DNA of 64,000 nt from Prorocentrum cordatum (lineage: Eukaryota), in the NCBI GenBank assembly GCA_963575745.1, contig CAUYUJ010000062.1, forward strand, positions 1 to 64,000, given 5' to 3'. Of the stretch, positions 7,992-64,000 are shown one piece after another. Made by a program: the position numbers and the translations under genes. A model generated the notes under the pieces. It did not search any database. It had not been told where the DNA came from and worked only from the letters and a program-made list of their open reading frames with translations. How positions within the stretch are numbered: the first letter of the stretch is position 1; each line of letters opens with the position of its first letter.

Positions 7992-8081
<90 letters not shown>

Positions 8082-9187: not shown

Positions 9188-9228
<41 letters not shown>

Positions 9229-9432
9229 TGCCCGCCGCCGCCGCCGCGCTGCCGCCGCCGCCGCGCCGTCGCCGCCTCCGCCGCCGCGCCGCCCGCCGCC
9301 GCCGCCGCCGCGCGCCGCCGCCGCCGCCCCCCCCGCTGCCAAATCGCCGCCGCGCAGCCGCCGCAGCCGTTGCCGCCACTGCCGCCGCCGCCAACGCCGC
9401 CGCGCAGCCCGCCGCCGCCGCCGCCGCCGCGC

Positions 9433-9463
<31 letters not shown>

Positions 9464-11300
9464 ACCGCCGCCGCCCCACCCCCGCTGCCAAATCGCCGCC
9501 GCGGCAGCCGCTGCCGCCGCAGCCGCTGCCGCCATCGCCGCCGCCGCCGCCGCCGCCGCAGCCGCCGCCGCCGCCGCCGCCGCCGCCGCCCCCGCCGCCC
9601 CCGCCGCCACCGCCGCCGCCGCAGCCGCCGCCGCCACAGCCGCCGCAGCCGCCCCAGCCGCCGCCGCCGCCGCCAAGTGTACTCTGTTTTGTTTTTGGAC
9701 AGGGATGGTGGGGGGAGGCCGCATCGGGTTGGCTGCGCATGCTCCGAATTCGGAGGCAGAGTGTGCTCTGCATGGTTTTTTGTTCACGAGGGGCCGTCAT
9801 GGTTCCTGGTTGGTTACCAGTCGCCTGGGGGAGGGGGTGTTTGTTAATAGGGTACAGTGATAAGCCCTTCCCAGAAGGGAAGAAGAAATTCCTTAAACCA
9901 CCTACGCCCAGAACGGCCAATATCCCCCACGTAGGGGAGTATATCGGCCGGTGGGGCCCAGGCCACGCCGCCAGAGATGGGGATCGGATAAACGATACAC
10001 ATCGGAGTTCCTCGGGACGCGTGCTGGCCCAGGGGGCCTGTCCCGTCCGGCACCACCCACGGTGCGCACCACCAGCACTTGATGGGCTTGTTTTCCACCA
10101 CCACCACCACCACCACCATAAGCTGGGGGGGGCGGAGGAGGAGAAAAAGGAGGAGGAGGAAGAGGAGGACCCCCTACCCCTCCAATTTATGGTGGTGGTG
10201 GTGGTGGAAAACAGGCCCATCAGCATTGTGCCTGCCATCGCGAGACGCGTCGCGAAGGGCGAACCGAGCGCTCGGCGGCGTCGGCACGGAGGGCCGCCAG
10301 GCCCCCAGGGCGGGTGCGGCAATCTGACCGGGGACCCCCACCCCATTTATCAAGCAGTAGCGAGGCGTCTTGGCGTGCTTACACGCCTACCAAACAATTG
10401 TCTAAGAACCGTTTGTGGCTTCCACGAAATGTTCTTAGAACATTTCTGGCGGGGGCTGTCTTGATTTAACCCACCGGGCGTATGTTCTAAGAACATTGTT
10501 ATTGTTCTTAGAACATCTGGGGTTTCTAAGAACACTCCGTGGTAGGCCTATAGGAATGCCGGGACGGTCGGTTCCTGCTCAACCTTACCCCCCCTTACCC
10601 CCCCCAGTCAGGGAGGGGAGAAGGGGAGGAAATCGATTGAATTACATGGTGTATTTCTCTTTGTTTGTTTCTAGATCTGCTTGGGATTACCCCTCCCCCT
10701 ACCCCTCCATGATGGGCCTGTCTTCCACCACCACCACCACCACCACCAGAAGTTGGAGGGGGAAGGAGGTGGAGGATGAGGAGGAGGAAGAAGAGGAGGA
10801 GGAGGAGGAGGAGAGACCCCCTCCCCCTCCAACTTATGGTGGTGGTGGTGGAAAACAAGCCCATCACCCCAGTCAAGGAGGGGAGAAGGGGAGTAAGTCG
10901 ACTGGATTACAGGGTTTGTTTTTCTCTGTTCGTTTCTAGATTTGATTGGGATTGGCAACGACGACGAAGACGATGACAGCCTCTCACACACGCGGGAGGG
11001 TCGGCGCATTTTGTCTCGAATGAAGATGAAGGAGTTTCCCCAGGGTTGGTTCGGGATACGTTCGCCTCGACGGGAGAGGAGGGAGCTCCACGCTCCACCA
11101 AGGTTGACTCGAGATGTTTTTGCCTCGAGGGGAAGGCCCCAACCAGGCCAAGATCGCCTCTTCCTCTTTGGTCTGGTCAGGGCCTCCCTCCTCCTTGGTG
11201 TTTGTCTGGCCGCGGCCTCCCACTGCGCCCCCGCCGCGCGCCAGGTATTTTTCTGACTTCTTCCCGGCCATCCAGTGGCTCATACAGCGCAGGGCGCCAG

Positions 11301-11357
<57 letters not shown>

Positions 11358-30700: not shown

Positions 30701-33700
30701 ACTTCGGCAACAAGACGGATCCGAAGGAGATCGATGAGTGGAAGACCCAGATCTCCACTCGTCGCTGCGGCGAGGACGACCTCCACTACCTCTGCGCCAC
30801 CACCACGACGTGGACGCACAAGGCCAAGAGCTAGGGCAGCGGGCAGAGTTCGGAAGAGATACCTCGACTGGGCGAAGCAAGCTTGGAAGGACTCTCCTGG
30901 TAAGCTCCATCGTACGCTCACGGACCCCAAGGCACAGCGCTTGGAGGACAAGATGGGCCACCACCGTCGGCGACCCATACCTGGCCATGAACACGGCTGT
31001 GGACACGCGGCGCGACATCTGGAAGTCCAATCGCTACAACGAGAAGCAGATCATCTACGCATACGAGAGGGTCACCCAGCTCGCGAAGGAGGACCACTTC
31101 CCGATCATCGAGCCGCAGCACATCCATTCCATCGCTGGCATTGCCAACCCCAACAAGCCGAAGGGGGGTCGTCAACATCGGATCGGCCCCATCGACATCC
31201 AGAGACTCCCTCATCAGGGCATCCAGGAGCTCGCCAACATCTACAACGCGGTGGAGCAGAGCGGCCTGCGGCCGCAGCAGCTATGCGCCACTGTCGGAGC
31301 GATGGCCCCCAAGCCCGCTGGCGGGGAAAGGATCTCGGGCGCGCCCCCCACGATCCCCAAGACATGGGCCAAGATACGGTCCACCATTACGGACGAGTGG
31401 CCCAAGGAGTTGGCGGAGTTCTGGGACACCGCCATCCAGGTCCCCAGCGCGCCCAGGGCCGCGCTGGCCAGGGCCCTCCTCGACGAGACGGCAGCGGCGT
31501 TCGGCGCGGCCTTCGCCGCGATCCCCATGGACGTCGAGAAGTTCTACGAGTCGGCATGTTACGCGCTCCTCTTCGACGCCGCCATCAGGGCGCCGATTGT
31601 CGCGGCGCTGGAGGTGCAGCCCCACCTGGCCCCCAGGCACTTGCGCGCGCACGGCTGGGCCAGCGCCCTCATCGGCCCGCAGCGGCCCATCGTCGCGGGC
31701 AGCTGCAACGGCGGCAAGCTGGCGAAGATCTCCCTCGGGCCGATCCTCCAGAGGGCCCACCACCACTAGACCTAAGGCGGGCTCGCGGGCCATCGTAGAT
31801 GGCACGGCGGCCAGGACGGAGGGGCAGACGCAGCAAGTCATCGGCGACCTCATGGGCGCGGCGACAGGCCTCTACACTGGCATGACGGACGCGGGCCTCC
31901 GAGCGTCTTCCAAGACGACGGTCGCCGCTTCCAGTCAGACGATCGCCCTCGCGACCCACGTCGGCTTCACGGAGAAGGGTTACTCCATCAAAGTTGCCCA
32001 CGCATCCGTCGATCTCGGCATCGACGTCGGCGGCGCCAAGAGGAGGGCCGCAGCCGAGGCCCCCACGCGGGCCTTGACGGCGAAGCGCCGCACCAACCGC
32101 ATCACCACGAAGGTCAGATGGGCCTGTCCCCAGCGGTCATCCTCGAGCAGAGGCGCCAGGCTATTCAGGCTTCCGCTGGGAGAGCAGGACGTCGCCTCTC
32201 CACCGCGCTGGCCGCAGCCTTGGGGCAGAAGGGCCACGCCATCGAGCAGAGGCGCCAGTCGATCACGGAGTGGCTCCACTTCTGGTTCAACCACCCACCA
32301 GAACACAAATTGCGGGTCACGCAGGCGCGGAAGCTCCTCTACGACGACGATCAGCCGCGCCAACAAGAAGCGGGGGAAGGTGCTGGGGCCCATCTCCGCC
32401 GCACAGGCCATCCTCACAGACGCGGGGTGGATATGCCCTACGCCATGCGAATGGTCTCGCCCACCATGGGGAGGAGAGACCGAAGTACAAGAATGGCTCC
32501 TACCTCACAGCGGCCAACCAGACAGGGAGGACAAGAAGCACGACGCGGGCCCCGCGGAGTTCGTCCACGAGCCCCGCCTGTCCATCGAGAAGGGCCCGCG
32601 GAAGGACGCAGCCAAACATCCACGCGGAGGAGGACTGCAGCGCGGAGGCCAGACGCCCACATCATTACGCCCTCACCCCCTGCGCGGCCGCACGCAAGAC
32701 GCGCCCGCGCCGCGCGGCCTCCGACGAGGCACGCATGCACGGGATCTGGCTGTGCCCGAGCAACCGCGACCACGAGGGCGACACCGATCATGACGCCCTC
32801 CTTCCGCAGCCCCTGCTGGGGCCGAGGCTTTTCCTGCCCGCCGGCTCCGCGGCCTGCCTGCGCGCGCAGACGCGCGCCCTGTCTTCTCTTTGTTGGAGGC
32901 GGGGTGGGGGGGTGGGCGGCGGGTGGAGCTGGGTCGGGCGGGGCTGGGAGGACTGCGCCAACGGCGATGGAACTGTCACTCTTTTCGGCGATGGGTCGGG
33001 CGGCGAGTTCAGTGACGACCCCCGTCGCCGAAGGGTGGGAGCCGCCTGCGCCGCTATGACGAGCTTCTTTGGGGAGTGGGCCCCCTGGGGAGGCACCCTC
33101 CCAGGCCTGGAGGGCCCCTTCCAGACGGTGCCCCGCGCCGAACTCTTGGCTTTTGCGCTCGCCCTCGAAAGCTGGCCTGGCGACCTCTGCTTCATTACTG
33201 ACCTCATGCCGCTTATGACGGGTGGAGGACGAACCGACATTTGCGCCCCTTGCGAAGGCGCGAGCTTAGATTTGCGGGCACGCATTGCCAAGGCAACGCG
33301 CACTCGCGGCAGCGGCAAGCTAGAGGTGACCTGGGCGCCCTGACACAGCGAGGGAGCACCCGGCCTTGCTTCCGACCCTGTCCGCCACTTCCACGCGGCA
33401 GGCAATGCAGCAGCTGACACGCGAGCAGGCGTAGCCGAAGTCTCCTACGAGGCAGCCCTCGCGGGCCCGCCCCCCCCCCCCCCCACCCCACCCCCACCCC
33501 ACCCCACACTGACCTGCACGACGCCCAGCGCGCCCTCATCCGCACGAGGGCGCGCAGAACGCACGCGGACACGCTTGCAGTTGACCCCTGGGTCGCGGGG
33601 CGACCCTCGCAGGCCAGAGGCCCACGTCTCACCAAGCTGCAGCTAGCCACGCAGTCAGGCCAGCACTCTTTCGAGCTCCGCGCAGGCAAGTACTTGTGCA

Positions 33701-34873
33701 CGCGCTGCGGGCTCACTACCGACCTGTGCAAGGCGCGGCATGCGCGTGCGACGCCTTGCCACCACGAGCCGCCGCTGCCAACGGCCAGCGATCAAGTGGT
33801 GCCAGCGCAGGGCGCCGCTACCACTTGCGGGCGCGAGCTGCACGCCTCTCACAAGCTGCACTATATACAGAAGTACTGGTTGTATTGTTGCCGCGAATGC
33901 GACAAGGTGGCTAAGCAGGACCCACGCCATCTTGCCGCGCCCTGCATGGGAATCACGAGGAAGCGGCGAGAGAACCGCGTCAAGATAGACAGTGGACTTT
34001 TCACCCGCGCCCACGCTGGGCGCGACGGACTGACCAATTTCGTGCGGCGGCTATCCACGGCATGGCCGTGGAGGAGTGCATTGCCGACGCCGCGCTTGCC
34101 GCTGTGCCCGCACGCGCCACACAGCAGGAGAGTTAGAAGGCACTTGGCCTCGCTCACAAAACGCACCCTGGTGCGCTCGGACGTATCCTCATATATATCT
34201 CCTCCTTCGCCTCCTCCTCCTCCTCCTCCTCGTGGTCCTCCTCCTCCTCCTCCTCCTCCTCCTCCTCCTCCTCCTCCTCCTCCTCCTCCTCCTCCTCCTC
34301 ATCCTCATCTCATCCTCATCCTCATCCTCTCCTCCTCCATTTCCTCCTCCTCTTCCTCCTCTCCTCCTTCCTCCTCCCTCCTCCTCATTCCTCCTCCCTC
34401 TCCTCCCTCCTCCTCCTCCTCTCCTCTCCTCCTCCTCCTCCCCTCCTCTTCCTCCTCCTCCTCCTCCTCCTCCTCCTCCTCCTCCTCCTCCTCCTCCTCC
34501 TCCTCCTCCTCCTCCTCCTCCTCCTCGGGTCGCCTACGGCCTTGGGGGGAGCCGTGCACCCAGGAAACCTGAGCGTCGCTTGGAGCCGAAGCGGAGAAAA
34601 CGCCATAGACAGAAACGACTGGCGTTCCGCGCGGATTTCTCAGATCCGGCGCCTGCGGCGCCGCCACTGGCGCGTTCCGCGCGCCAGGGAGGGGTGTCCA
34701 CCGCAGATCCAAGGAATCCGCGCGTAGCGCCAAAATAATATGTTTATGTTGTTTCTTCTTCGCATTATTAGTTTGGTATGATTCGCAGTATTCGTATTAT
34801 CTTTATAATTAGTAGTATTATTAGTAGTAGTAGTCGTATTATTATTAGTAGTAGCAGCAGTAGTAGTAGCAGC

Positions 34874-43450: not shown

Positions 43451-44610
43451 GGGAGGGAGCGAGCGGGGGAGGCGGGGGCAGGGGGGAGGAGGCAGGGCGG
43501 GGAGCAAGGGGAGGGGAGGGAGGGGAGGATGAGGGAGAAGGTAAGAGAGGGGAGGAGGGAATTATGGAGGGAGGAGGGGAGGGAGGGAGGAGATAAGGAA
43601 GGGGAGGGGGGAAACGCGAGGAAAAGGAGGAGGGAGAGAGGGAGGTTTGTCCACCGCCTCATGCGGGGTCGGTCTCGACCGGCCCTCTCCTCCGACCCGT
43701 CGGCGTGCGGGCCACGCACTTCCGCGACAGCATCCCCACCGTGCTCTTCCGGTTCCCGTGGGCGGGAGACGTGGGTGCGAATCCGTATCGTTTCACCGAT
43801 CCCTGTCCCCTGACCCTATCCACATCTCGAGCCCCACCGTCTCACCACCTCAGTTGGGGATACGCCCCGCGAGGCCCGAAGAGAGCAGCCTGCATCCCCA
43901 TCCAGGGGGGGTAAGTCGGCCAGTGGGGCACAGCCCACGCAGGTGGGCATGGGGGTCGGTTAAACGATGCTCAGGGGCAGTAGATGGGAGGGGGAGAAGG
44001 GTGCCCTTTTCGGACCTTCAAAGCCCCCTTTCTGCAGCCCTCGCTGCCCTTTTTTCCATGTTTGGCGCCCCCATTACGCGGCCTCCAAGACATACCCGTA
44101 CACGCTGATCGTTGAAAGTATGTATTTCTGGTATGCCAGATCTCAATCTACGTCAAGCGCCTTCCTGTTTCAAGAGTCGATGTGCCTTTGAGGTGTTGTG
44201 TTATGCTCTGGGGGGGGTGCTTGGAGCCAATGTGCTCTATCCGTTTCCTGGTTCATGTGTTTACCTACAGTGCCGTTTTAAACACATGCTCCGCGTGCGG
44301 ATCATGTATTAAAAAATACAGGGATTTAGTAGTAAAAACAACGATGATATGATGCATAAACTTACTCGTAAATTAAGCATGTATTAAAAATCCCATGTAA
44401 TTAAGAATCCCATTATTAAAAATTGCCCTGTACTTCCAACCGACGGGTACCTCCACGACCACCCTTCGGGACTGTTGGGGGGACGGAGCCAGCGTCTCCA
44501 TTGATCTCACCATCGATCTCGTTCTCGAGCGCACGACCGCTCTCACGCGATCGATCTCCCTCGATCGGTCTCACTCGATCGCTCGCACTCGATCGAGCTC
44601 ACTCTTGCGA

Positions 44611-44690
<80 letters not shown>

Positions 44691-44956
44691 TCCCTATCGA
44701 GCTCACTCCTCGGCGATCTCGCCCGATCGAAAACACGATCGATCTCACAACGGTGGGAGCCCGGCGGAGGGAGAGCGCTGACGGAGGGGCGCGCGCCGCC
44801 CGCGGACACGGGGAGGTGCGGGGTCGCAAGAGGTGCCTGCTCGAGCCAGACAGCCGCGGGGACGGTGGTGGCCTCGGTCGCAGCCCGAAAACTGGCGTCT
44901 TCGGGTCCCCCTCCTCCTCCTCCTCCTCCTCCTCCTCCTCCTCCTCCTCCTCCTCC

Positions 44957-44978
44957 TCCGTAGCCATTTTGGCTCAAG
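44957..44978 (+). other. Dinoflagellate spliced-leader (DinoSL) sequence, retro-copied
   Basis: TCCGTAGCCATTTTGGCTCAAG is an exact match to the DinoSL consensus DCCGTAGCCATTTTGGCTCAAG. It is followed by ATG, not the GT donor expected in an SL RNA gene. Confidence 0.97.
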
Positions 44979-45127
44979 ATGCTTTGTTCCACAGGGGAAC
45001 ACGTGGATACCGCTAGTCCGCGGCCAGTGCTAGGGCGTTTCTGCCCGACGTTTCTCATTCAACCTGTGAGCTCCTGGTGGAGCGTATCGACCCACTCCCA
45101 GACGGCAGCAGGCACCACGTGTGTGCG

Positions 45128-46135
45128 ATGGCGCCGCTGTCCAAGAAATGGGTTTGGTCTACCTGCAAGAGCTGCAACAATTGGGCGTACGACTGGAAGA
45201 TCAAGCGCAATGGGGGCTGCTGCGCCAAGTGCGACTCGTTCGCCACTCTCTGGGCGGACACTCCCTCGGCGTCGCGCAAGCCACCATGGGGAGACCAACC
45301 TACAAAGGGCACCTACGCGGAAGTGGTGTGCAGGCAGCTGGTCCACGCCGTCTCCAAGCTGGGGCCCGACCAGAGCATGCAGGAGCAGCTGGAGCACCTG
45401 CAGACCACCACCTCCCAGAAGTGCGCCCCGCCCAAGAAGGAGTTACCCAAGTCTGCGGCTCTCAAGCAGGCAATCGGCAAGGTCAATTCCGCCAAGGCTA
45501 AGCTCGACGGAGTCACCAAGCGACACATGGACGCTGAGAAGGCGCTCGCCAAGCTCGCTGAGCAGGTGGCGCAGGCAGCGGAGGAGGTCTACGAGGCACA
45601 GCTGGAGCACTCGAAGGCCCTGGAAGAATACAACATGCACTCAGTGGCGGAGGGCACGGCGGCTAAGCCCGAGCAGACGGGCTTCCAGGTGGACGAGAGC
45701 CTCTTCGCCGACGAGGAGGATTTGGAACAGACTCAGAAGGACCAGCTTGCAAAGTTCAGGGGGGACGCGAAGTCCTTGCAGGAGCTGCTCGAGCGCGCCA
45801 AGACGCAGCAGGAGGCTCTGCTCACCATGGTCGAGAGCGCGAAGAAGATCAAGGCGGATCATGCGGCAAAGAAGCGCAGGATCAACGAAGGAGGGCAAGC
45901 ACACGCACATGTTCCACCACCTGCTCAAGACGCCAAGCCTGAGGCACCACCACAGCAACAAGCCAGCGATCCAGACGCAGAAAAGCGCAAGGCAGAGGCG
46001 ATCGCCAAGCTCATCGAGGAGAACAGGGAGCGTACCAGGGCGGCATCTCAGAGGGCGACCAACTCTTCACCTACGGCTGGCACGGCTGCTGCGGGCGGCG
46101 CTACGGGCTTTTCTCCTGGTCGGGCTGGTATTTAG
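45128..46135 (+). CDS. Element A ORF1: N-terminal Cys4 zinc ribbon plus coiled-coil (putative nucleic-acid chaperone)
   Basis: MAPLSKKWVWSTCKSCNNWAYDWKIKRNGGCCAKCDS (CxxC...CxxC), then an A/E/K/Q-rich helical region. Intact to TAG, in the typical LINE ORF1 position. Confidence 0.85.
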   Translation: MAPLSKKWVWSTCKSCNNWAYDWKIKRNGGCCAKCDSFATLWADTPSASRKPPWGDQPTKGTYAEVVCRQLVHAVSKLGPDQSMQEQLEHLQTTTSQKCAPPKKELPKSAALKQAIGKVNSAKAKLDGVTKRHMDAEKALAKLAEQVAQAAEEVYEAQLEHSKALEEYNMHSVAEGTAAKPEQTGFQVDESLFADEEDLEQTQKDQLAKFRGDAKSLQELLERAKTQQEALLTMVESAKKIKADHAAKKRRINEGGQAHAHVPPPAQDAKPEAPPQQQASDPDAEKRKAEAIAKLIEENRERTRAASQRATNSSPTAGTAAAGGATGFSPGRAGI

Positions 46136-46352
46136 CCCGCCATGGCAGCCGCCTGCAGCGCTGGACAGGCCTCCAGCACCGCCGCCCCCCGAGAGGTCTG
46201 CCTTCCCTGGTCCCCCTGGGCCGTCGCCCCCGTGTCTCGGGGATCGCACCTCCTCGTCCGCGCCAGATGTGGACGCAGCTTGTCAAGACTGGCGGCGCAG
46301 CCAGAGTGAGAGAGCTCGCAATCAGACATGTGAGACAGCCAAGCCAGCGAAG

Positions 46353-49300
46353 GTCACCAGTATTTTCTTCAGCAACATCACACAATGGGGCGAGAAGCCT
46401 CAGAAGTTCCTCAACGAGAGCCAGGAACTGGCTCAGATATGTGCCTTCACGGAGTCCCATGTGCCGCAGTCAGGCATCGCGAAGCTGAAGAAAGACCTGA
46501 GCAAAGACGGATGGAAAGCAGCAGTCACGGCAGCAACACCGACGCGACGCTCGAAGGAAGGCAACAGCGGAGGCGAGCTGCTCATCGCCAAGGCGCACTT
46601 GGCGACCACAACGTTCGACGCGATGAGGGAGACCATCAAGGCCCGAGGAGGACAGGACCCATTCAGAGGGTTCACGGCCATGACTACCCACCTCAGCGGA
46701 GGAAATGTGGTTCTCTTCTCCCTCTACCTGCTTCCCAAGGAGGGCATGCAGGGCAGCAACTTCGAAAGGATCAAGGCGCTCTCGACGGTCATAGGGAGCA
46801 GCACAGATCCTTGGATTATCATGGCAGAAAGGCATATGCCCCCCGACCCTGGTCGAGAAGTCAGGCCCCACCACGCGCCTGGGAGGCAAGGTGATCGTTC
46901 CGAAGGTTCAGGTCACATGCGACAAGGGCGAGGGCAGTCTCATAGATTTCGCCATGGCACGAGAAGACATGGCAGAAGGCATCACCATCGACGGACATGC
47001 GAGAGTACCTTGGAGGACACATACGGGGCTCTTGCTCAAGTTACCAGGGCGTTCGGAGGCTTGGTGGCACAGGCATTTGGATCTCCCCAAGCCGTTGCCG
47101 CTGGTGCTCCCACCGAAGAAGGCCCCCGACCCAGAGAGCAAGCGCAGCAAGACGAAGCAGGCAGCACATCAGAAAAAGACTGGCAGAACTCCCCGAGGAC
47201 TTGCGCGAGGAGTTCAATTGTATCGAGCCCCCACAGACCAACATGGTGCAGCAGACGGTGCAGTACGCGATAGACGAGGGCCAGTGGGAGCAGGCCAGTC
47301 GCACCGCCATCGGGCCAGCGTTGACCAAGCAAATGCACGAGTTGGAGGCCAACCTTCTCATTCGCAGTGAGCATCAGAGGCTGATGGAGCAGGCGATCAC
47401 AGGCGAGTACGCGGTCTGGGTCACCACCCTGGAGGAGGCGATCATCGGAGTAGACATGATGGACGCCGAGCAGGCTGATGCACACCGAGGTAGAGGGGGT
47501 GGGTTTGCAATCAGATGGCAAAGATCGAAAGCCACACCAGGCCGTACGCATATGAAGTATCAAGCAGCTGAGTTGCGGTCGATAATGGGAGTCTTGATTA
47601 CCAGATATGAGTCATTAAGGTCCAACGGCACGGACAACAAGCAACAGAGGCAGTGCGAGAAGGAGTTGTCCACGACCTACCAGCAGCTCAGAAGGATGGG
47701 ATTGGATCAGATCTTTGGTCGAAATTTTGATCATGACGAAGCCGATGAGCGCATGTTACGGGTGCAGGAGGTCAAGTCACACACGCTGGAGGAGCTTGAG
47801 AGGTTGAAGGACGAGATTGAAAACCACCTGGCAATTGCGGTCTCCAGAGGCATCTCCACACAGCGGCAGCAGTTCACTAAGTGGGCAAAGAAGATGTGGT
47901 CGGAGAAGCCAGGGATCCTTCACAAGCACGTCAAAGATCCAGTGCAGCCAACATACGAGCAGTACCACCAGAACGCAAGCTCGGCGGACCCAGAGATTCT
48001 CATGCACACGAAGAGGCTGAAATGGCTAAAGATCTGGACGGATGCAGTGGACACCAGAGAGGACATCGCGTCGGAGCTGCAGGCCATGCACAGACAGGCC
48101 AGAGACGAAGACTTGGAACCGATCACGATTGAGGAGTTCGACTCGGCAATGCAGGCCACGAACCCCAATAAAGCAGGCGGTGTGGACGGTCTCAAGTTGC
48201 ACGACATCAAAAGGGCCCCGCAGAGCGCACGCCAGAAGCTGGTCGACCTCATCAACATGCGCGAGCGGACGGGCACTTGGCCGAGGCAGTGGACGGCTAC
48301 ACTCGGGGCTGTGGTCCCTAAACCAGCAGGTGGTGAGAGAGTGCTGGGGATGCTACCCCTACCAGTCAAACTTTGGAGCAGGGCGAGGGCGTCACCTTGC
48401 AGCGAATGGAGCGAGGCGCTGAGCGCGCACTGGGACACGGCCCTCAAAGGCAGCTCGGCGTTGCGAGCGGGGCTGCTCCGTGCCTGCCTGGACGAGGCGG
48501 GATACGAGCTGGGCATCTCCAGCCTCACCCTGCTGGAGGACATCGAGAGGTTCTACGACAGCGTCAGCCTGGTGCTGCTGATGCGCATCGCTAGGGGCAT
48601 CGGCTATCCAGCAGTGGTAGTGGAAATGGAAGTACTCATCTTCGCGGCGGCTCGCTTTCTCAAAGACAAGTCGTCGCTGAGTGAGGCAATATGGGTATCC
48701 AGATCGATAGTTGCGGGGTCACCCAGAGGCGTCAGCCTCGCGAAGGTTTTCCTCCACCCAATCCTACAGCGAGCGCATATCATATCACCGACGGCTGGAC
48801 TCTGGACATTCGTCGATGACACTGTGGCTCGAGAGGAGGGCACGGCACTGGGGACCCCAGACAAGATGGTCAGAGTGGCTTGCGAGCTCGCCCAAGGACT
48901 TCGTCAACAGAGGCTCAAGATCTCGGACAAGACAGTCGTCATCGGCTCGAGCAGAGACATGGTCAAGAGCGCGGCGAAGAGGTTGCAGCAGAACGGCACC
49001 CCCGCCAAGGCCAAGACATACACGAAGGACCTAGGCCTCGACGCTTCTGCTGGGCGTAAACGAGTTGTTCGCACACTCAAGAGACGAATACTGGCAGCTA
49101 AGAGACGGCTCGCCAAGATCAAGAGGCTGAGGAAAAGCACGACCTTGGCAAAAGAAGCGAAAGGACTCTGGTCTACGGGCGCCCTGCCCCAGGCCACACA
49201 CGGATATCAAGCGTTCGGCCTTTCCATGACGGAGCTGACGAAGCTAAGAAGACAGGCGGGCCAGATCGCAGCAGGCTCTCAAGGAGGCAAATGTCTGACG

Positions 49301-51433
49301 ACAACACTTGCAATTGAGATGTGGGACAAGGAGCCAGGCTTGGAATTGCGCAAACGAGTTGTTCACGAGTGGCTGGCGATGTGGCAGATGAATCCTCAGA
49401 TCAACGCGAGAGTCAAGTTAGCCTGGACCAAGATCAGACAGCGATTGATCACGGCTGGACGGAGGAGGTGGGCCTATGTCAGAGGCCCGATCGCCACGCT
49501 GCAGGCCACGCTGATGGACATAGGCTGGAACCCCATCAAGGCGACAGAGTGGGACAGACCACTACCAGATGGACAGTTACAGGCTTGGCTTATCCCCAGC
49601 GGCACTGACACGGAGTACACGAACGATTGGGAGAGACTAGCCATCTTGGCAGACGTGGTCAGCGACATGCGCAATTTGTATTGGCAGCAGGCGTCGAAGC
49701 ACGAGGATGGAGCTGACCTGCTCCCAGGTGCGGATGTATGGGGAATCAGGGCAGAGCAGCGCAAGTTCCACAATGAAGGAGCTTCAGATTTGGCGGCACT
49801 CAACCTGATAGTCACCACAGGTGGGCAATGGACCCGAGTGAGGCGCGCCAGACAAGGATACCTCATTGATTCCAAGCTTTGCCCGCGCTGCCAGCTCAAA
49901 GAAGAGAGTTTGTATCACCGCATTTGGGAATGTGAGCAGAACAAGGGGCACGAGGATTTCGTGAAGTCGGAGGCGCTTGTGGTACAGGCGGCGGCGCAGC
50001 ACGAGGCGTCGCCTGCTCTTTGGCCTCGGGGAGTACCAGCCGTTGGGCTCACCACTCCTGAGTTCGATGAAGCGCTCCTCGGCCAGCTGCAGTTGGATTT
50101 TAAGTCACACGGCTTCGCCGAATGCACGGAGTCAGGCAGAGTTCACGTTTTCGGTGACGGCTCGGGGGGCAAATATTCTGACGACCCCAGACGGAGACGC
50201 TGCGGAGCAGCGATCGTGGGGCTCGCGTTTGATTCGGGAGGCGGGTGGACCTTGGGGGAGGCTCTCGGGGTTCCTCTGCTCGGAGAAAAGCAAACGGCCC
50301 CCCGAGCCGAAGTTTTAGCATTCTGCCTGGCGTTAGAGCAAGTAGATTCAGAGCTGGGTTTCACATTTGTGACAGATCACAAGACGATCTCCAGGACCTG
50401 GAGGGCCCGCTTTCGAAGGCCCAACCCTGTGGGTGCCAACGAAGACCTCTGGACCAGGGCCCACATTGCTTTCCAGGCCAGGAGGAATCTTGATGTGGAA
50501 GTTGCCTGGTCCCCCTCCCACCAAGAGGAGGCCCCAGAGAAGTTAGACACGCTCGAGAAACTCTTTTATGCCTCTGGCAACGCCTGCGCTGATTCGCGGG
50601 CGGGGGAGGCGGCGGAGTAGGCGTGGAGGGGGCTGGTGGGGCGGGAGCCTGAGACGGACAAAATTGATGCCACAGCTTCGTTGATTCGTCGAAGGGCCAG
50701 ACGTGCCCTGGCGCGCGCAGCGGAGGCCGAGGAAAACACTCGGGCGGAGAGACCCCCTTTGAAGAAGGAGTCGAGACCGTCCAAGTTGGTGGCTGCGGCA
50801 CACGCCTCGGACCACATCCTCGAGCCATGTGGTCGCAGCATGAAATACTGGTGGTGCACGGTATGTGAGAGAGTTGTCCCCCGCTACCAAACGCGGGTCT
50901 TTGCGGCCACGACATGTTCAGGGCCTCCTGCCGAAGTCAGGAGAGGCCCCCAGGCCGCTGTTGGAGAGAGGGTCGCCCCCTCAGCCCGAGGGGGCGGCTT
51001 CCTAGAAAAGGTTCACCCCTCTCACAGGCTCCAGTATGTGGAGAAATGGTTCATTCACATTTGTTCGGAGTGCGGTTCTTATTGCACCGTGGACCCCAGG
51101 AATTTAGTGGGCAGATGTGATGGACGGACCAAGACAGGTTCGGAGAACCTAGCGAGGATAAGCAAAGGTTTGTTCCCGCGTCGCGAAGGCCCCCCGAGGG
51201 CAATTTTAGAGGCCATTAGGGCTCGTGAAGAAGCCGCCTGCGCGGACGTGGCGGCCATGCTCAGGAGTCCGCAATCGGAAAACCCAGGACCCGACCTGGC
51301 TGGCCAGGCGGCTGGGCCTTCGGGGGCTCAGACGGGAGCGGGGTTATTGGACCGCGCGGCCCCCTCCAGGCCTGGCCAGGCCCAGGAACCCCAGCCCGTG
51401 CGGGCTGGGGATGGAAGCGATTCCAGTGATTAA
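46353..51433 (+). pseudogene. Element A ORF2: APE endonuclease - RT - Cys motif - RNase H - C-terminal Cys/His domain (2 frameshifts, 1 in-frame stop)
   Basis: APE: IFFSNITQW, CAFTESH, NSGG, FSLYL, PWIIMA, SLIDF, PWRTH. RT: KAGGVDG, PKPAGGERVLG, EDIERFYDSV, WTFVDD, KDLG. Cys motif: CPRC..EESLYHRIWEC. RNase H: FGDGSGG, QTAPRAEVLA, FVTDH, DLW, WSPSH, GNACAD. Frameshifts near 46840 and 47175. A TAG at 50618-50620 is followed by the same frame to TAA at 51433 (WWCTVC, HPSH, CSECGSYC). The frame is also open upstream to the ATG at 44979. Confidence 0.92.
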
Positions 51434-51704
51434 ATCGCCCCCCAGGGCAGCGTCCGCTATCAAAGAGTCAAAGAGTCCTCCTCCTCCTCCTCCTCCTCCT
51501 GCCCCTCCTCCTGGACACCGCCCTCTGCATTACCCCCTCCACCTCCTCCTCCGTCCTCCGTCCTCCTCCTCCTCCTCCTCCTCCTCCTCATCCTCCTCCG
51601 TCCTCCTCCTCCGTCTTCCTCCTCCTCCTCCTCCTCCCCCTCCTCCTCCTCCTCAGCTTTCACTCAGGCCGAGGGGCCTAATCCCCTCCATCGCTCGGCC
51701 GCGG

Positions 51705-53036
51705 ATGAGCCCAGGGCCCGCGGGAGATGCTTTCGCAGACTCTCCTTGGCGCCAAGGCCCACCGTTCCAGCGAAGCAATACATGGAAGTGCAGCTCTTGC
51801 GGCTGCGCAAAGAACAAGATGGCGAGCCACGTCTGCAAGCACTGCGGCTCGGCTTGGAACGCCCCGAAGGTTGTTGAGCCCTCTCCTCCTGCTGGGGTTT
51901 GGGCTCAGAACACTGCTGCTGGTGGCCTGCTACCCGCTCTCTCGCCTGGGCTGCAGTATCAAGGCTTCCAGGGCGGTGGCAACGGCAAGGGCGCACACAA
52001 GGGCGGAGGCAAGCCTTCCAAGGGCAAGGGCAAGGGGCACGGAGGCGCTGCGTGGACTCCACCTGGCTACTTCTACTCCCCCGCCCTGGTGCCAGGTCCT
52101 CAAGGAGGAGTGGTTCGGCCTGGCCCTCTTCCCAACGTCACCCAGCTTTCGGTTCAAGAGTTGGAGACCTTTGTCGAGCTGTTCCGTAAGGTTGGCAACA
52201 CGACGGAGGCCAACCGCTACCAAGTTCAGCTGGTTGCGCTCAAGAAACCTCACAAGGCTGAGGAGTTATGCGAAGAACAGCTCGCCCGATGCCAACGCGA
52301 GCGGCCTAAACTGGGGAAGAAGTTGTCTTGGGAGTTCGGCAATCTCGAGGAGCTTCGCCTCAAGGTCGCCGCTCAGGAGTCCCTTATCGTTCAGATCAAC
52401 AAGGAGATGGACGGCTTGGACACCAAGCACGACGAGCTCACTGAAAAGGTACACTCGCTGCGCAAGCAGCACCCCGACGCCAGCAAACCAGTCGTGTCGC
52501 TCTCCGAGCTCTTGGCAGGGAAGATCGACGCTTTCGAGCTGGACGTCGGTGACTTGCTGGACATCGACCCCGAGGTCGGCGCGCTCGAGGAGTCGGACAT
52601 CGCGGAGGTCAACAGGCGTAAGGAGCAGCTGGTCAGCGGCTTCAACACCATGGCCAAGGACCTGTTCGCCAAGGCTATGGAGTCCGCGCAGGCTGCTAAG
52701 GCGGCGCATGTGGAGCAGACCCAGCGCCTCAAGGCCAAACGTCGCCGTGGCGATGATGGAGCTCAGGCTGCTGAAGCTGATGGGCAATGGCAACCTGCTG
52801 ACGGCGCTCCTGCTCCTGGACAGACGGCCCAGGCTGAACCAGCAGCCCAGCCAGCTCCGACGTCGGCTCCATCGACTCCAACTACGGGATCTTCTGCAGG
52901 CACAGGTCAGGCTGCCAGTGGATCCTCGGCTGTACCTCCACCGCCTGACCTGGCCAAGATGCGCGAGGCTGCGCGCGCTCTGGCAGCCAACAAGGCGCCT
53001 GGCAAAGGCGGCCCCCCGCTTGACGTCTCGATGTGA
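51705..53036 (+). CDS. Element B ORF1: RanBP2-like zinc finger, GK-rich segment, coiled-coil
   Basis: WKCSSCGCAKNKMASHVCKHCG resembles the RanBP2-type W-x-C-x2-C...N...C-x2-C pattern. Also GKGAHKGGGKPSKGKGKG and a long helical region. Intact to TGA. Confidence 0.85.
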   Translation: MSPGPAGDAFADSPWRQGPPFQRSNTWKCSSCGCAKNKMASHVCKHCGSAWNAPKVVEPSPPAGVWAQNTAAGGLLPALSPGLQYQGFQGGGNGKGAHKGGGKPSKGKGKGHGGAAWTPPGYFYSPALVPGPQGGVVRPGPLPNVTQLSVQELETFVELFRKVGNTTEANRYQVQLVALKKPHKAEELCEEQLARCQRERPKLGKKLSWEFGNLEELRLKVAAQESLIVQINKEMDGLDTKHDELTEKVHSLRKQHPDASKPVVSLSELLAGKIDAFELDVGDLLDIDPEVGALEESDIAEVNRRKEQLVSGFNTMAKDLFAKAMESAQAAKAAHVEQTQRLKAKRRRGDDGAQAAEADGQWQPADGAPAPGQTAQAEPAAQPAPTSAPSTPTTGSSAGTGQAASGSSAVPPPPDLAKMREAARALAANKAPGKGGPPLDVSM

Positions 53037-53364
53037 AGCGGGGGGCATCGAATCGGAGATTTTTTTCGGCCATGAGAGGGTCAAGCTTTGCTGCACGCCT
53101 GGCTCCCCTCTCTTTGGCCCCAGCTCACGTAATCCTCGGTGTGGCACGGCGCCGTCGGTCTCGGCGGCCCCGCAGCACGGTTGCTCCAATCCGTCCGTGA
53201 AGAATCTTGCTCGTGTATGTTTGCCAGTTCATGCGAGCGGTGACACGATGTTAATTCAGGGGACGCATCGTACTCCCCTGGCTGCACGGCGAGATGCTTG
53301 GAATCTTGGAGCTGACGCTCGTGGCTGCCCTACCGCCCCCGATGCCCCCCCCCCCCCCCCCCTC

Positions 53365-56300
53365 GGAAGAATTGCCCCTGGCCGTGGAAACTGTTAACGG
53401 CAACGCTTGGTCGTCGGTGAGAGACTGGCCCCCCCAGGTGTTCAGCCCATGTTCTCCTTGTCCAGGAGCACAAGCTCCAGGCTGGGGATGCTATTGAAGT
53501 GGCGTCTGCCTTTTGTTTCAGGCACGGCTGGAAATCCCCGTGGGTCCCAGGGACCCTTGGAGAGGGGGGAGGCCCCTCCTATGGCGTCGCCATCCTGGCC
53601 CGTAGCTGGCTAGGCTTGCACAGCTTGGGCTCTGCTGAGCTCTGGCCCCACAGGGCCGTGGTTGGAGTTGTCCACCCCCCAGAGGGCCAGGCCATCCTCC
53701 TCTCCTCTCTTTACCTTCGGGACTCGGAAGGGCTCAGCGAAGCGAACCTCGACATCCTGGGGGCCCTTGGTGCCCATTTTTCGACTTCTGGGATGCCCTT
53801 CTTGATGGGCGGCGACTTCAATCTCGAGCCGACCACGCTCCACGAGAGCGAGTTCGTTCACAATCTTAAGGGCCAGCTGGCGGCTGCGGACGGGCCCACG
53901 CGTTACGGCACTGGCGTTCCCAAGTGCTACGACTTCTTCGTTCTGTCGGGCGGCCTTGCGAAGGCCGCCAGCTCAGTTTCCAAGAATTTTGATGGGGGCA
54001 CTTTCCACCCCCACTTGCCCGTTCGGATCCAATTCCATGTCGGAACTGCCAATCTTCACGTCCTCTCGTTCCGCAAGCCCCCCCCCCCGATCGCTGTGGA
54101 CGCCCCGATCGGTCCGTCGCCCGAGCCCCCGCGTTACGGCAAATGCTCGGCCCTGTTGGACAAGGCCCTGGTTAGGGCCCAGAGGGGGGATGTTGACGTG
54201 CTGGACTCCCCTCTCGCTTCTGCCTATAAGCAATGGGCCAACACGGCCGAGCCAGAACTGTGCAATGTGATGGGCACGTCCATCCCTTACTTTGGGGCAC
54301 GTGGCAAAGGAGTCGAGATGTGGTGGAGGCCCGTCCTGGGTCGCGACCACGGCTCGGTCCGTTACCCTGTGCTCCACAGCATGAGATGGTTTTGTCCAAC
54401 GTCTTAAAAGTTTATCGGTTGGTGCTGTTGGGCCCCGACAAGCATCCCTCGGATTTCGCTAAGGTGCAGGCTGCCCTGGCGTCGCCCCCTGCTTTCGTGG
54501 CGGGTCACCAAGGTAGCTACGCTGCTGCGTTCTCTGCTGCATCCTCTGTGGCCTGCCTGTGGGGCGTGGAACCCGACGAGTGCAAGGCCTGCCTGGACTC
54601 GGTTCATTCTCAGCTTCAAGAGGCCAACAAGCTTTGTTCCGAGGAATTTTCCAAAATCGCCAGGTCTGATTGGGCTTCGTGGCTCCTGGACGGGGTCAAC
54701 CAGGGAGCCCGTCGGGCCCACCAGGTTTCCAAGAACCCCGCGGCCTGGAGGCCCACCTCCACATTGAGTCGGTTTGGAGCTCTGGTTAGTGACCCTCAGG
54801 CCCTCTTGAAGCAAGAGAGTGACAGATTTGGTAAGCTGTGGCGGGCTGTAGAAGCCCCCCCTCGGCTTCGGTGCTGCAAGCTCGTGCCTCTGCCGCAGAT
54901 CACAGTGGACGAGTTTCGCATTGCCTCGCGGTCTTACTCGAGGCGCTCTGCTGTCGGCTTGGACGGCTTTCACCTTCGGCACTATCAGTTTCTCTCCGAC
55001 GAGTCCCTGGAGTGCCTAGGGAAGCTGTTCGTGGTCGTCGAGTCGGCTGGTATGCTTCCCAGACAACTGCGGGCCCTGATCATGACCATGATCCCGAAGT
55101 CGGTCCCTGGGTTCCGCCCCATTGGGGTTTTTTCGAGCCCCTTTTCGCATCTGGGGCCGCATTCGGAGGCCCTATGCCGTGGCCTGGGAGGAAGCCAATG
55201 ACAGGCCCTACTGGGCTGCTGGAAAGCATAGGTCGGCTTCGGACGTGGTGTGGCGCCAGTCGGTCTCGGCTGAACGCAGCACGTCTTCAGGCCAGCATGC
55301 TGGAGCTATTTTTACGATATGCTGAAATACTACGAGCAGATTCCACTGGCCTTGCTGGAGTCGCGCGGCCAGAGGCTTAATTTTCCTCCTGTCCTGATGG
55401 CGGTCTGTCTGGCTGGATACCGATCGGCTCGTTTCATGGTTTTGCGTGGGGTCGTGGCCCCCCCTGCGTATGGAGATCACGGTGTGACAGCGGGCTGCTC
55501 GATCGCTACGACTATGATCAGGGTGTTTGGGCTTGATTCTTTCGACTCTGTGGTCCTGGGTCCGAACACTACCCTGGACGTCTACATCGACGATTCTGGG
55601 CTCAACGCTGTTGGCACGGCCGAACAGATTGTCACCAGCCTGCAGGACGGGGCCCCCACCCTTCAGCACGCCATCACGGTTATGATGCGTGCCCAGATTT
55701 CTTTGGACAAGACTGCCATGGTCTCGTCTTCTAAGTTCGTTTCGCATAGGCTCTCCCAAGTATTTGGAGATCTCGTTGGGCCCCACAGGGAAACCACGGT
55801 TAACCTCGGCATCGATTTCACTCCAGGGACTTCCAGGAGGGTTAGGGGGCGAATTGCTGAGGCGAAGACCAGGATGAATGCTGCGCTGCGTAGGACTCGC
55901 CGCTTAGTCCGCCAGCGTGGAACGCTGGGCTCTCGCGCTACCAAGGTGTTTGTCTCAGGGCCGCTGGCAGGCGCTCAGTACGGCGCTGAGGTCCACGGCA
56001 TGTCCGAAGGAGAAGTGCTCAAGATCCGTAAATTGGCTGCTTCCACCATGAAGCCGAACTGTGGGGGTCGCTCGCTCACGATCCTTACCCGCCTCGAGAA
56101 AGACCCAGCCTGGTACGGATCTGTAGCACCTATCATTCGGTATTGCAAGGAGTTGTGGTTGCTGCAGACGAGGGCTCCCTGGTCGCTCAGTTGGCACGAA
56201 ATTCGCGAAGCCTGGTCCGCTGTCTGGGCCCGACCCCCGCGTACCTGGAGATCCTGCAAGGGCCCTGTCGGGGCCATGTACCTCTCCCTGAAAAGGCTCG

Positions 56301-57887
56301 GCTGGGACATGACGGACCCTTTCACGATGACGGACGACAGAGGGGTGCAGATTCCCCTCCTGCTTACCTCCCCTGCCCTCTTGAAGAGATGTTTAAAGAG
56401 CGCGGTTTTACGGGATTTAGAAATCGAGGCTGGAAACAGGTACCTTGGTGGGACCCGCCTCTGTTTTGATTTGGCCGACGCGGCCCTGGCGCCATCCAAG
56501 TTTTCCCGCAAAGAAAAAGGCGCCATCAAAGCCCTCGTTTGTCAGGCTGTGTAGCCGCTTAGCCGTGCAGCCGCCCTCGGCTACTGCGTAGATGACGAGT
56601 GCTTTCTGCGTGGCCAGGTCGGAGACACTATCTTGCACAGGCTTTGGTTTTGCCCTGAATGCGAGGAAGATCGAGTGGAGATCGTTGGTGAGCGTCTCCT
56701 CGCCAAGATCCGTGCGGAGCTCGCGGCTGATCCCAGTCTGAGCTTTAAGTTGGCCTGCGAGACGGGCCTTTTTCCCGCACCCGTCCTTGTGGGCCCCTGG
56801 TCCCCTGTCACAGGAACAAGCCCTGGACAGCGTCGTTTTCCAGGTCTTCCCCGAAGCGCACCTGGCCGAGGGGTCACCAGTTCCTTCCGAGGGGGAGAGG
56901 GCTCTTGGAGGGGACATTTACACGGACGGCTCTTGTTTGCGGTCATCGATCAAGGATCTTTCCCGCTCGGGGTGGGGAGTTGTGAGTCTTGGTCCTTCGG
57001 GTAAGATCCTTGCTCAGATGCACGGTGCGCTGGGCAGCTTCTTTCCCCAGACGTCTGTCGCTGCGGAGTTTGCGGCGCCAACGAGTGCCGCCAGTCTCCT
57101 TTCCAGTGCCTCGGACATTTTCAGCGACTGTGCCGCTGTCGTGGGAGAATACAGTAAGTCTTTTGTCAATTGCCTTTCAGCCAATCGGCCCTACAGTGGG
57201 TTGGTTATGCAGAGCTATGCGCACGCCAATAGCATGCTGCGCTCGGTCCAGAAGGTCAAGGCCCACAGGGCGGATGACCCTGATCTTTCGGACCTGGAGC
57301 GTCGGCACATTGTTGGGAATAACGCGGCCGACATGGCGGCTAAAGCAGGTGCGCGGTTGCATGTAGATTTGAATTCTGACGATCGCGAGAATCTCGATCA
57401 CGCGATCCGCACGGCTAAGGCCGTCTTCAAATTAGCTGCCAAATTGCTCGAGCGCTGGCTTAAGACCAACCTCGAAGGTGTGCCTCGTGCGGAAGCTCCG
57501 CCGAGAATACCCAACCCCGCCAGCCCTCCACATGTGTGGGCCTGGGTAGGTCGATTTTGGTCATGTCCGAACTGCTTGCGCTGTTCGCGCAAGCAGGTGA
57601 AGCCCGCCCCTGGAGTGTGCACACGCCAGCTCCGAATCGACCCTGTCGAATTGCGTGCTCTCGGACACAGCTGCATAGTGATTGACTTTGATGACCACAG
57701 TTTTGCCTGTGTGTGTCGCGCCTGTCACGCTTTCAGCACGGGAGGGCAGCTGCGACGCTTGTCTAAGACATGCGTCGGCCACCCTCCTGACCGCAGCGAG
57801 GTCTTTTCGCGGCTCAGCAAGGGGCTCCATCCTGACCACAAGAGGAAAGGGGCCAGAGCTGACTGCGAAACTATTTGCCCCATTTAG
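53365..57887 (+). pseudogene. Element B ORF2: APE - RT - Cys motif - RNase H - C-terminal Cys domain (several frameshifts, one stop)
   Basis: APE: VETVNGNAW, YGVAILAR, SSLYL, MGGDFN, CYDFF, HPHLPV. RT: AVGLDG, PKSVPGFRPIG, KYYEQI, GVTAGCS, YIDD, NLG. Cys motif: LHRLWFCPEC. RNase H: YTDGSC, QTSVAAEF, FSDC, KVKAH, GNNAAD. C-terminal CPNC..C and CVCRACH. Breaks near 53350, 53450-53500, 54395, 55140, 55315 and 56815, plus TAG at 56552. Confidence 0.9.
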
Positions 57888-58139
57888 TTGGGGTCTGAGG
57901 CAGTGGATGTCAAAATCCTCCTCCTCCTCCTCCTCCTCCTCCTCCTCCTCCTCCTCCTCCTCCTCCTCCTCCTCCTCCTCCTCCTCCTCCTCTTGGGGCG
58001 GTCTGGTGAGGCAGGCCGGTCCGCGCGGAGCTCCGTGGGGCGAGACGCCGATGTGCAGGGGCCGCGCTGGGCTCGGGAGGGGTGCTCCGGTCCTCGGGCC
58101 GAGGCTCGCCGTGGCCAGGGGTCAGGGAGGAAAAAAACA

Positions 58140-62296: not shown

Positions 62297-62396
62297 NNNN
62301 NNNNNNNNNNNNNNNNNNNNNNNNNNNNNNNNNNNNNNNNNNNNNNNNNNNNNNNNNNNNNNNNNNNNNNNNNNNNNNNNNNNNNNNNNNNNNNNN
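62297..62396. other. Assembly gap (100 N)
   Basis: Run of N. Confidence 1.
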
Positions 62397-63530: not shown

Positions 63531-64000
63531 TAGTAGTAGTCGTAGAATGTGTGGTAGCAGGTGCGGCGTTGCTGTCGCAATTGCAGTCGCAGGTGTTGCT
63601 ACTAATAACAATAGAATGAAAGGTACGAGTAATAATGCATGTCGCCGCAATAGCGCTACTACAAATAATTATAATAGTGATGACCATCGTAATAACAATA
63701 CGAATAAGAATAAGATCGAAGACGCCTACGGCGAATCACCGCCGCCCCCTGTCTATTGGGATCGCCCATGTGGCCGAGCGTTGTGGCAAGGACTCTGCCA
63801 AGCTATCGGATCCCCCCAGCCGTTCTGGAGACCCTTCGGACAACACTTGGCGGAGGACGGCGGGAAAATCAGGAGGAGGAGGAGGAGAGGGCATTTGAGG
63901 AGCCTATGGGGGGCACTCGGGGCCTCCTGGGAGTTTCCTGGGAGCCTCTCGGAGGCACCTTGGTGGCCTCCTTGGGCCATCTTGGGGGCCTTTGTGGGCT

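Follow-up and report, generated by a model that had tools for sequence, protein, structure and literature searches.

How does a retrotransposon come to have the dinoflagellate spliced leader (DinoSL), which trans-splicing adds to messenger RNAs (mRNAs), as the first bases of its own DNA? The question is raised by a stretch of 64,000 nucleotides (nt) from Prorocentrum cordatum (GenBank assembly GCA_963575745.1, contig CAUYUJ010000062.1, positions 1 to 64,000 of the forward strand; hereafter the window), in which a long interspersed nuclear element (LINE) of 6,519 bp occupies positions 44957-51475 on the + strand. Here, we argue that this copy, called copy A, probably arose from an element RNA that had received the spliced leader (SL) by trans-splicing and was reverse-transcribed as far as its capped end. 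Such an origin is well supported for copy A and plausible for the family to which it belongs.

The spliced leader junction

The 5' junction of the element, read directly from the window sequence, is ...GGGTCCC(CCT)17-CC GTAGCCATTTTGGCTCAAG ATGCTTTGTTCC, and is made up of the following parts.

44906..44956, + strand: upstream (CCT)n microsatellite of about 17 perfect units, the 5' target DNA, the last TCC of which overlaps SL bases 1-3
44957..44978, + strand: DinoSL TCCGTAGCCATTTTGGCTCAAG, 22 of 22 positions, the first bases of the element
44979..45127, + strand: leader, the 5' untranslated region (UTR) of the first open reading frame (ORF1); the ATG at 44979 is the first AUG and opens an overlapping frame

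Positions 44957-44978 match the published DinoSL consensus, DCCGTAGCCATTTTGGCTCAAG, as quoted in PMC7245778. With up to three mismatches allowed, the DinoSL 21-mer has this single match on both strands of the 64 kb and none in 100 shuffles, and the same locus is the sole match in the window for the 15-nt core of SL relics at up to two mismatches. Nineteen nt are unambiguously SL, while the first three (TCC) are also a unit of the repeat and thus form a microhomology at the junction; Tandem Repeats Finder (TRF) reports (TCC)18 at 44906-44959, with 96% matches. The letters directly behind the SL are ATGC, with an ATG at 44979 and no GT donor, and the only ATGs within 44957-45135 are those at 44979 and 45128. 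A preliminary description of the locus had claimed a perfect 22-nt DinoSL directly behind (CCT)n, the TCC microhomology, and an ATG instead of an SL RNA intron behind the SL. All three are borne out by the sequence, with the correction that the ATG at 44979 is not the start of ORF1, which lies at 45128. The leader folds no better than its shuffles (z -0.64), and a search of 44500-51900 against Rfam at expectation values (E) up to 1 gave no match and no ribozyme.

Copy A starts at base 1 of the SL (within 3 nt) and carries no upstream flank of a source copy, so that the 5' end of the template would have been the SL's own 5' end. The simplest origin is therefore the one proposed in the preliminary description, namely an RNA that was SL trans-spliced and copied to its very 5' end. 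Other LINEs are tied to spliced-leader biology in a different way: CRE, SLACS, CZAR and NeSL-1 insert into SL exons or genes and use a restriction-like endonuclease (PMC4640811), whereas copy A has an SL as its own 5' end, has an apurinic/apyrimidinic (AP) endonuclease and lies in (CCT)n. An insertion specific for SL genes, or an SL that is itself part of an SL RNA gene, would also make a LINE and an SL sequence abut, and nothing else speaks for it. For this locus it is refuted by (CCT)n on both flanks, and the single SL in 64 kb, the lack of a GT behind the exon, the AP-type endonuclease and the lack of Rfam matches all point the same way. Genes for SL RNA often form tandem arrays, and no second SL is present here. 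We give this explanation hardly any probability at all, in agreement with the earlier claim that the element does not lie in an SL RNA gene.

Template switching is a second route to the same junction. A reverse transcriptase (RT) at the 5' end of an element RNA that was uncapped or unspliced might have jumped to an SL-bearing RNA; jumping at RNA 5' ends is known for the RTs of elements that lack long terminal repeats (LTRs), called non-LTR elements (PMC8857657; 10.1101/2021.05.13.443781), and no 5' sequence in the cell is more abundant than the SL. Such a jump enters at the 3' end of the new RNA, however, and would copy its body or the SL intron, whereas exactly 22 nt are found here, followed by ATGC. 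In SL RNA genes a GT follows the exon, which in A. carterae continues with GTACAC (PMC12584245). We therefore regard template switching as distinctly improbable.

Two further observations were made on SL-like and repetitive sequence in the window. At 7664-7675 (+), GCCATTTTGGCT reproduces 12 nt of the SL exactly; since chance would give about 0.08 such matches in the window, it may be an eroded relic. Two repeats lie just 5' of the insertion site, within 44534-44692: a (TC)41 array and a tandem repeat of 14/28 nt (TCTCACTCGATCGA).

Other copies and the overlapping frame

Evidence on the junction beyond the assembly comes from Logan contigs of four sequencing runs, coded X1, X2, X3 and X6. In X1, 724 contigs lie on the element and cover all of its 30 bins (204 at identities of at least 99%, 253 at 95-99%, 206 at 90-95% and 61 below 90%), and X2, X3 and X6 contribute 80, 31 and 23 contigs, respectively. 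The element family is multicopy, with many near-identical and diverged copies elsewhere, and is taken to be dinoflagellate-specific. A record of X6 (record 25) bridges 44978/44979 with 31 + 46 letters and 9 differences, at about 88% identity, and one X1 contig carries the SL, ATGCTTTGTTCC and a recognisably diverged leader. Among the loose ends listed, the sequence just before the SL consists of ACAC/GCAC repeats in X1 (2 contigs), imperfect CCT-rich sequence in X2 (2 contigs), CTCCTCCT in X3 (1 contig) and unique sequence in X6 (1 contig). These differing ends would fit independent SL-headed insertions, two of them again in CCT-type DNA.

The contigs also bear on a possible assembly artefact, in which a cDNA or a transcript contig would have found its way into the genome assembly. 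The 5' end does resemble that of an mRNA, and both frameshifts of the element lie in homopolymers, as is typical of long-read errors. Against such an artefact, there is no poly(A), the element lies inside a 64-kb stretch with a sole gap at 62297-62396, both of its ends are in the same kind of microsatellite, as are those of two other diverged LINEs, and metagenome contigs (X2, X3) carry CCT-type sequence directly before an SL. An assembly artefact thus appears highly improbable. The gap itself, a run of 100 N, is about 11 kb from the element.

Several observations weigh against a trans-spliced origin, for copy A or for the family. No listed run that contains the element is recorded as RNA, so the RNA junction is deduced from DNA, and a target-site duplication cannot be delimited within the repeat. 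In a distant full-length relative just downstream (copy C, see below), the 5' end shows neither an SL nor a relic that could be recognised (local alignment score 8); a resemblance to the SL seen there by eye was rejected on this score. The loose ends before the SL may come from contigs that match the SL alone, i.e. from other retrogenes. Finally, across the four runs the first 46-70 nt behind the SL lead into several continuations that look unrelated: SL and leader are common to contigs up to 45024, 45027, 45028 or 45049 (X1, X2, X3, X6), after which the contigs are unlike the window (5+5 contigs in X1, 1+1+2 in X2 and 1+1 in X3). The statement that the life cycle of the element passes through trans-splicing thus draws on copy A and on the few contigs of other runs with the SL and the same leader.

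A leader with unrelated continuations is also the outcome expected of a chimeric or transduced 5' end, in which the SL and the first 46-150 nt would derive from another SL-capped RNA of the host or of a repeat, or from a 5' transduction in which flanking sequence of the source copy was carried along once an acceptor further upstream had been trans-spliced, the LINE proper beginning at about 45025-45123. The shared leader that ends at 45024-45049 in X1, X2, X3 and X6 favours this, as do the two X1 contigs over ORF1, both of which stop at 45123. On the other side, one loose end in X1, behind 44990, is plainly a diverged form of the same leader, so that at least some of the continuations are variant 5' UTRs of sister subfamilies. 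In addition, no stop interrupts the frame of the ATG at 44979 over the leader and all of ORF1 as far as the endonuclease, which is unexpected for a foreign leader. Even a chimeric end would leave the SL as the mark of a trans-spliced RNA that carried the element. We consider a chimeric 5' end unlikely; our best guess is a conserved 5' module followed by a variable segment and then by ORF1, across subfamilies.

The frame in question is the following.

44979..46844, + strand: stop-free frame (position modulo 3 equal to 0) from the ATG after the SL, over all of ORF1, into the endonuclease

Across ORF1 this frame has no stop, where 5.95 are expected from codon-order shuffles (P 0.0004). In ORF1 of copy C (51705-53397), the same relative (+1) frame has one stop against 7.84 expected (P 0.0008), and this single stop overlaps the start codon. 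Five control segments from ORF2, the second open reading frame, show no comparable shortage of stops (P 0.04-0.68). In copy A, the frame of 44979 is also that of the endonuclease and, barring two 1-nt insertions and a TAG, reaches 51433; some distant relatives are predicted with extensions of 500-700 amino acids (aa) ahead of the endonuclease (P0134, P0105). These results, from a pair of elements tested against a single type of null model, suggest that ORF2 may begin at the first AUG, directly after the SL, and that ORF1 would be overprinted on the N-terminal part of ORF2. Positions 44979-46844 are therefore a candidate N-terminal extension of ORF2, and ORF1 together with this frame is a candidate overprinted gene pair. 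The alternative that the 764-codon ORF from 44979 is an artefact of G+C content was rejected on the positions of the ATGs and on the stop-shortage test; the window has about 60% G+C, and the P. cordatum genome 59.7% (PMC10666404). No SL-encoded N-termini came to light among predicted proteins in a search with the frame-0 translation of 44964-45560, the start of which lies within the SL.

Scans of wider sequence collections added little. The exact leader was found in 0 viral contigs and 0 metagenome contigs, and a protein-guided scan gave one internal RT fragment of 2,204 nt without a 5' end (L001) in metagenome contigs and, with the same alignment, no match in viral contigs. A single low-depth X6 contig has the SL, 14 other letters and then the element from 50105, a position that in the window follows an AG (50103-50105); either the contig is mis-joined or it represents a retrocopy made from an RNA that was trans-spliced internally.

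Element class, anatomy and probable (CCT)n target

Downstream of the leader, copy A has the following features.

45128..46135, + strand: ORF1, 335 aa, with an N-terminal C-x2-C...C-x2-C motif, then a coiled-coil-like region; stop TAG at 46133-46135
46350..47235, + strand: AP-endonuclease domain in two frames, with AERH at 46824-46835 in place of ADWN
47909..49100, + strand: RT domain, with FVDD at 48809-48820
49880..49933, + strand: CCHC motif (C-x2-C-x9-H-x4-C) between RT and RNase H; weak zf-RVT matches in P0003 and P0005
50141..50617, + strand: RNase H domain (E 0.0012, under the Pfam cut-off, which relatives exceed)
50618..50620, + strand: in-frame TAG that breaks ORF2 before the conserved C-terminal region
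50621..51433, + strand: Cys-rich C-terminal region of ORF2 with C-x2-C pairs, kept in P0003, P0005, P0009 and copy C
51434..51475, + strand: 3' end ...TCAAAGAGTCAAAGAGT, no poly(A)
51476..51655, + strand: downstream CCT-rich microsatellite, (CCT)8 followed by imperfect units, which doubles as the 5' flank of copy C

On the window's own ORFs, Pfam gives a sub-threshold RNase_H match only, ORF2 does not reach RVT_1 at E up to 0.01, the endonuclease fragment is unmatched, and a PDB search with the single element sequence found nothing. Full-length relatives of the element match RVT_1 (P0003 at 7e-07, P0005 at 2.8e-07) and RNase_H, and among 20 further relatives 5 match Exo_endo_phos (PF03372), 10 RVT_1 and 12 RNase_H, with nothing found in 5. 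Such relatives are numerous: an exhaustive phmmer search, the source of these 20, gives 4,449 representatives at an E of 1e-3 or lower, of which 298 reach 1e-30 or lower, and all named relatives of the window proteins are P. cordatum gene models. The ORF1 protein has four matches, all from P. cordatum, of which P0159, P0160 and P0161 are 92-94% identical and share its start Met, the fourth being 58% identical. Residues 327-481 of P0160 (a member of the same family, 94% identity) align with the Exo_endo_phos region of P0013 (E 7e-12), and UniRef labels P0160 an endonuclease/exonuclease/phosphatase domain protein. When a profile of the family was compared with PDB, 5 of 5 matches were L1 ORF2p (E about 1e-6), a weak match and the only lead to a clade. 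Neither LTRs nor terminal inverted repeats were found, a self-BLAST shows no second copy of any part of the element, and a repeat search finds the flanking (CCT)n as the only direct repeat; since both flanks are (CCT)n, they would hide any target-site duplication no longer than about 24 nt. A 5'-truncated copy is also present in the window (copy B, see below). Because RVT_1 and Exo_endo_phos occur in relatives, L1 ORF2p is matched in PDB and LTRs and terminal inverted repeats are absent, 44957-51475 is classified, by sequence comparison, as a non-LTR retrotransposon of the AP-endonuclease type with a predicted RNase H.

Homology of ORF2 to relatives of 1,645-1,822 aa, which are matched along their entire length, extends over 46350-51238 in three frames (46350-46874, 46843-47235 and 47123-51238), and that to P0003 and P0005 continues past the TAG at 50618-50620 to 51238 with the frame unchanged; upstream, the N-terminus of P0004 matches 45155-45289. 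Behind the frame changes are two 1-nt insertions, one in the C6 run at 46839-46844 and the other in the A5 run at 47173-47177. Contigs of other copies are one base shorter at 46839 (one in X2) and 47175 (one each in X1 and X2), and the P. cordatum gene models are uninterrupted at the C6 site and end before the A5 site. These homopolymer indels could be assembly errors. P0159, P0160 and P0161 retain ADWN where the element copy has AERH. With AERH, two 1-nt insertions and a TAG, copy A is full-length but, judged from its coding sequence, dead. The preliminary description had called it full-length, which stands as far as the 5' leader, ORF1, the whole ORF2 domain set and the 3' end are concerned but not as a statement of intactness. 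Its description as an autonomous-type LINE with the SL as 5' end agrees with the plan of ORF1 and endonuclease, RT and RNase H, in a copy that is itself defective. The Cys-rich region 3' of RNase H is conserved across distant family members, and no Pfam family was matched by it in copy A (50621-51433), copy C (56742-57887), P0003, P0005 or P0009.

At the 3' end, no poly(A) is present; the element ends ...GTCAAAGAGT and is followed by (CCT)8. TRF places a 179-nt imperfect CCT array at 51476-51654, adjoining the last bases of the element, which could be, at least in part, the rest of the target or the element's own tail. The last 176 nt (51300-51475) fold better than shuffles (z -2.2; 3 of 200 shuffles equal), and this predicted fold may be a 3' recognition structure.

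Two relatives of copy A were found in the 64 kb by tblastn with related proteins, both on the + strand. Copy B (about 29986-34199), at 35-45% aa identity, is frameshifted and 5'-truncated: its first bases fall within the C-terminal portion of the endonuclease (VPWKTH region). A CCT array (29851-29985) directly precedes it, and a CCT-rich array (34200-34527) comes after it. Copy C (about 51656-57916) is a full-length LINE of 22-28% aa identity, 180 bp downstream of copy A and built on the same plan, with an ORF1 that has a similar Cys motif, an endonuclease, an RT, an RNase H and a Cys-rich tail. The ATG of its ORF1 (51705) lies only 50 nt behind the CCT array that trails copy A, and its 3' end reads ...GTCAAAAT(CCT)25, with the array at 57917-57991. 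Copy C is preceded by ...CCTCCTCAG, an acceptor-like sequence, and the boundary 51655/51656 reads CAG|CTTTCACTC.

All three related LINEs in the window thus have (CCT)n on both sides, with CCT on the sense strand. Each of their six boundaries has a (CCT) run of at least four units at a distance of 0-202 nt, which is 0 at the 5' end of copy A; the 3' flank of copy A and the 5' flank of copy C are the same array, which leaves five independent boundaries. Runs of this length make up 2.3% of the window, and the chance of such proximity is 0.006-0.08 per boundary. Because each of the three lies between CCT arrays, our analysis of the window points to a microsatellite-specific, (CCT)n-targeted LINE group, in which (CCT)n would be the target rather than only a tail. 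Microsatellite density in the window is very high, with 55 (CCT) runs and 30 (AGG) runs of at least four units. Apart from one short run at 63871-63885, the AGG runs are confined to 942-13416 and 28343-28592, whereas CCT runs occur across the whole window and are the sole type of the two between 28593 and 63870. The dense CCT/AGG arrays may be footprints of the tails or targets of the LINE group. Among 69 other long ORFs of the window, Pfam gives one sub-threshold match, to DUF4834.

Origin of copy A and relation to known systems

With target and 3' end described, the probable origin of copy A can be set out as a series of events. The transcript of a source copy would have been given the 22-nt DinoSL by trans-splicing directly ahead of its first AUG. 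Proteins of the family would have nicked a (CCT)n/(AGG)n microsatellite, and reverse transcription would have been primed at the non-polyadenylated 3' end of the RNA, perhaps with read-through CCU repeats pairing with the target. The RNA would then have been copied as far as its capped end, the SL becoming the first bases of the new copy and being joined to the target via the 3-nt TCC microhomology. Decay of the copy would have followed, with the change of ADWN to AERH, the TAG and the pair of 1-nt insertions. That the element RNA was trans-spliced, that its reverse transcription was target-primed and that the proteins acted in cis is inferred here; that the family's own machinery rather than a promiscuous RT made the copy is indicated by the missing poly(A) and the shared target.

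A broader scheme, possible but doubtful, would make trans-splicing the means by which a LINE lineage does without a promoter or 5' UTR of its own. Trans-splicing before the first AUG would free the element RNA from read-through transcripts and cap it, the SL would be the whole 5' UTR of a frame of about 2,150 codons, and the overprinted ORF1 would be reached by leaky scanning. The (CCT)n target would put a pyrimidine tract before the copied SL, whose terminal AG could be reused as acceptor, so that each full-length copy could regenerate its 5' end. Dinoflagellate trans-splice acceptors show an AG and no other consensus (Bachvaroff and Place, PMC2488372), which leaves (CCT)n as a pyrimidine tract for trans-splicing a speculation.

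Several retroelements share parts of this organization. The microsatellite LINEs of the Tx1 clade, i.e. Kibi in (TC)n, Koshi in (TTC)n and crocodilian Tx1 elements in (TTCC)n and (TTTC)n, are described in PMC4494074, and these elements resemble copy A in being AP-type elements of pyrimidine-rich microsatellites that lack poly(A) and may depend on the flank for transcription. Copy A differs from these in its (CCT)n target, its dinoflagellate host, RNase H with a Cys-rich C-terminus and the SL at its 5' end. L1Tc and ingi of trypanosomatids also live in hosts that trans-splice all mRNAs, and a short 5' sequence, Pr77, is common to different retroposons there (PMC1874656; PMC8190864). The leader of 46-70 nt shared by the diverging contigs looks similar to such a 5' module, but Pr77 is an internal promoter that yields unspliced transcripts without SL, whereas the 5' end of copy A is the SL itself. 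Human L1 ORF2p has the same order of AP endonuclease, RT and Cys motif, and 5'-truncated copies occur in both kinds of element. The similarity is weak (E about 1e-6), and copy A differs in having RNase H and an extra C-terminal domain, no poly(A), no internal-promoter 5' UTR and an ORF1 overlapped by a second open frame.

R2 carries a self-cleaving ribozyme at its 5' end and, as a promoter-less LINE, relies on host transcription of its target and on a step of RNA processing that sets its 5' end, as may hold for copy A. Its co-transcription with the target is mentioned in PMC4494074. The processing here would be SL trans-splicing by the host, which also supplies the cap, and Rfam finds no ribozyme.

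The closest parallel is with the dinoflagellate retrogenes that carry DinoSL relics and underlie the mRNA-recycling model, in which a DNA-encoded 5' SL likewise marks the cDNA of a trans-spliced RNA (PMC5585692). By the features that define such retrocopies, copy A has a DNA-encoded 5' SL without the context of an SL gene and lacks a 3' poly(A) remnant. In contrast to these retrogenes, the retrocopy here is the retroelement itself, in full length, the SL is complete instead of truncated, poly(A) is absent and the target is a specific microsatellite. Relics of the SL lie ahead of more than 20% of Symbiodiniaceae genes, and their TTT(T/G) was proposed as a core promoter (Song et al., 2017; PMC5585692). 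The same study reports enrichment of the Gene Ontology (GO) term 'RNA-dependent DNA replication' among its SL-relic genes, so that RT genes which carry relics already figure in earlier counts. A search of the literature, which did not cover subscription journals and supplements, found no description of a DinoSL-headed LINE or of a (CCT)n-specific LINE of dinoflagellates; the new points here are the (CCT)n specificity of a LINE group and the second open frame, which overlaps ORF1 and begins directly behind the SL.

A retrogene survey of 2025 still calls the mediator of SL-retrogenes unknown (PMC12014239), and the preliminary description had proposed copy A as a candidate source of the RT activity behind them. 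This proposal is not supported in that form. The absence of poly(A) and the location of all three relatives within the window in (CCT)n are the signature of a stringent, target-specific machinery, which weakens the family as a general source of SL-retrogenes and is a caution against equating a LINE family with the retrogene machinery.

The locus instead offers a concrete, testable family: an autonomous-type LINE whose own RNA would have passed through SL trans-splicing and been copied to the cap. It also points to a (CCT)n-specific group of LINEs in a bloom-forming dinoflagellate, which may explain part of the regional density of CCT/AGG microsatellites, and suggests a way in which a LINE that lacks an internal promoter can survive in a host that exerts little transcriptional control.

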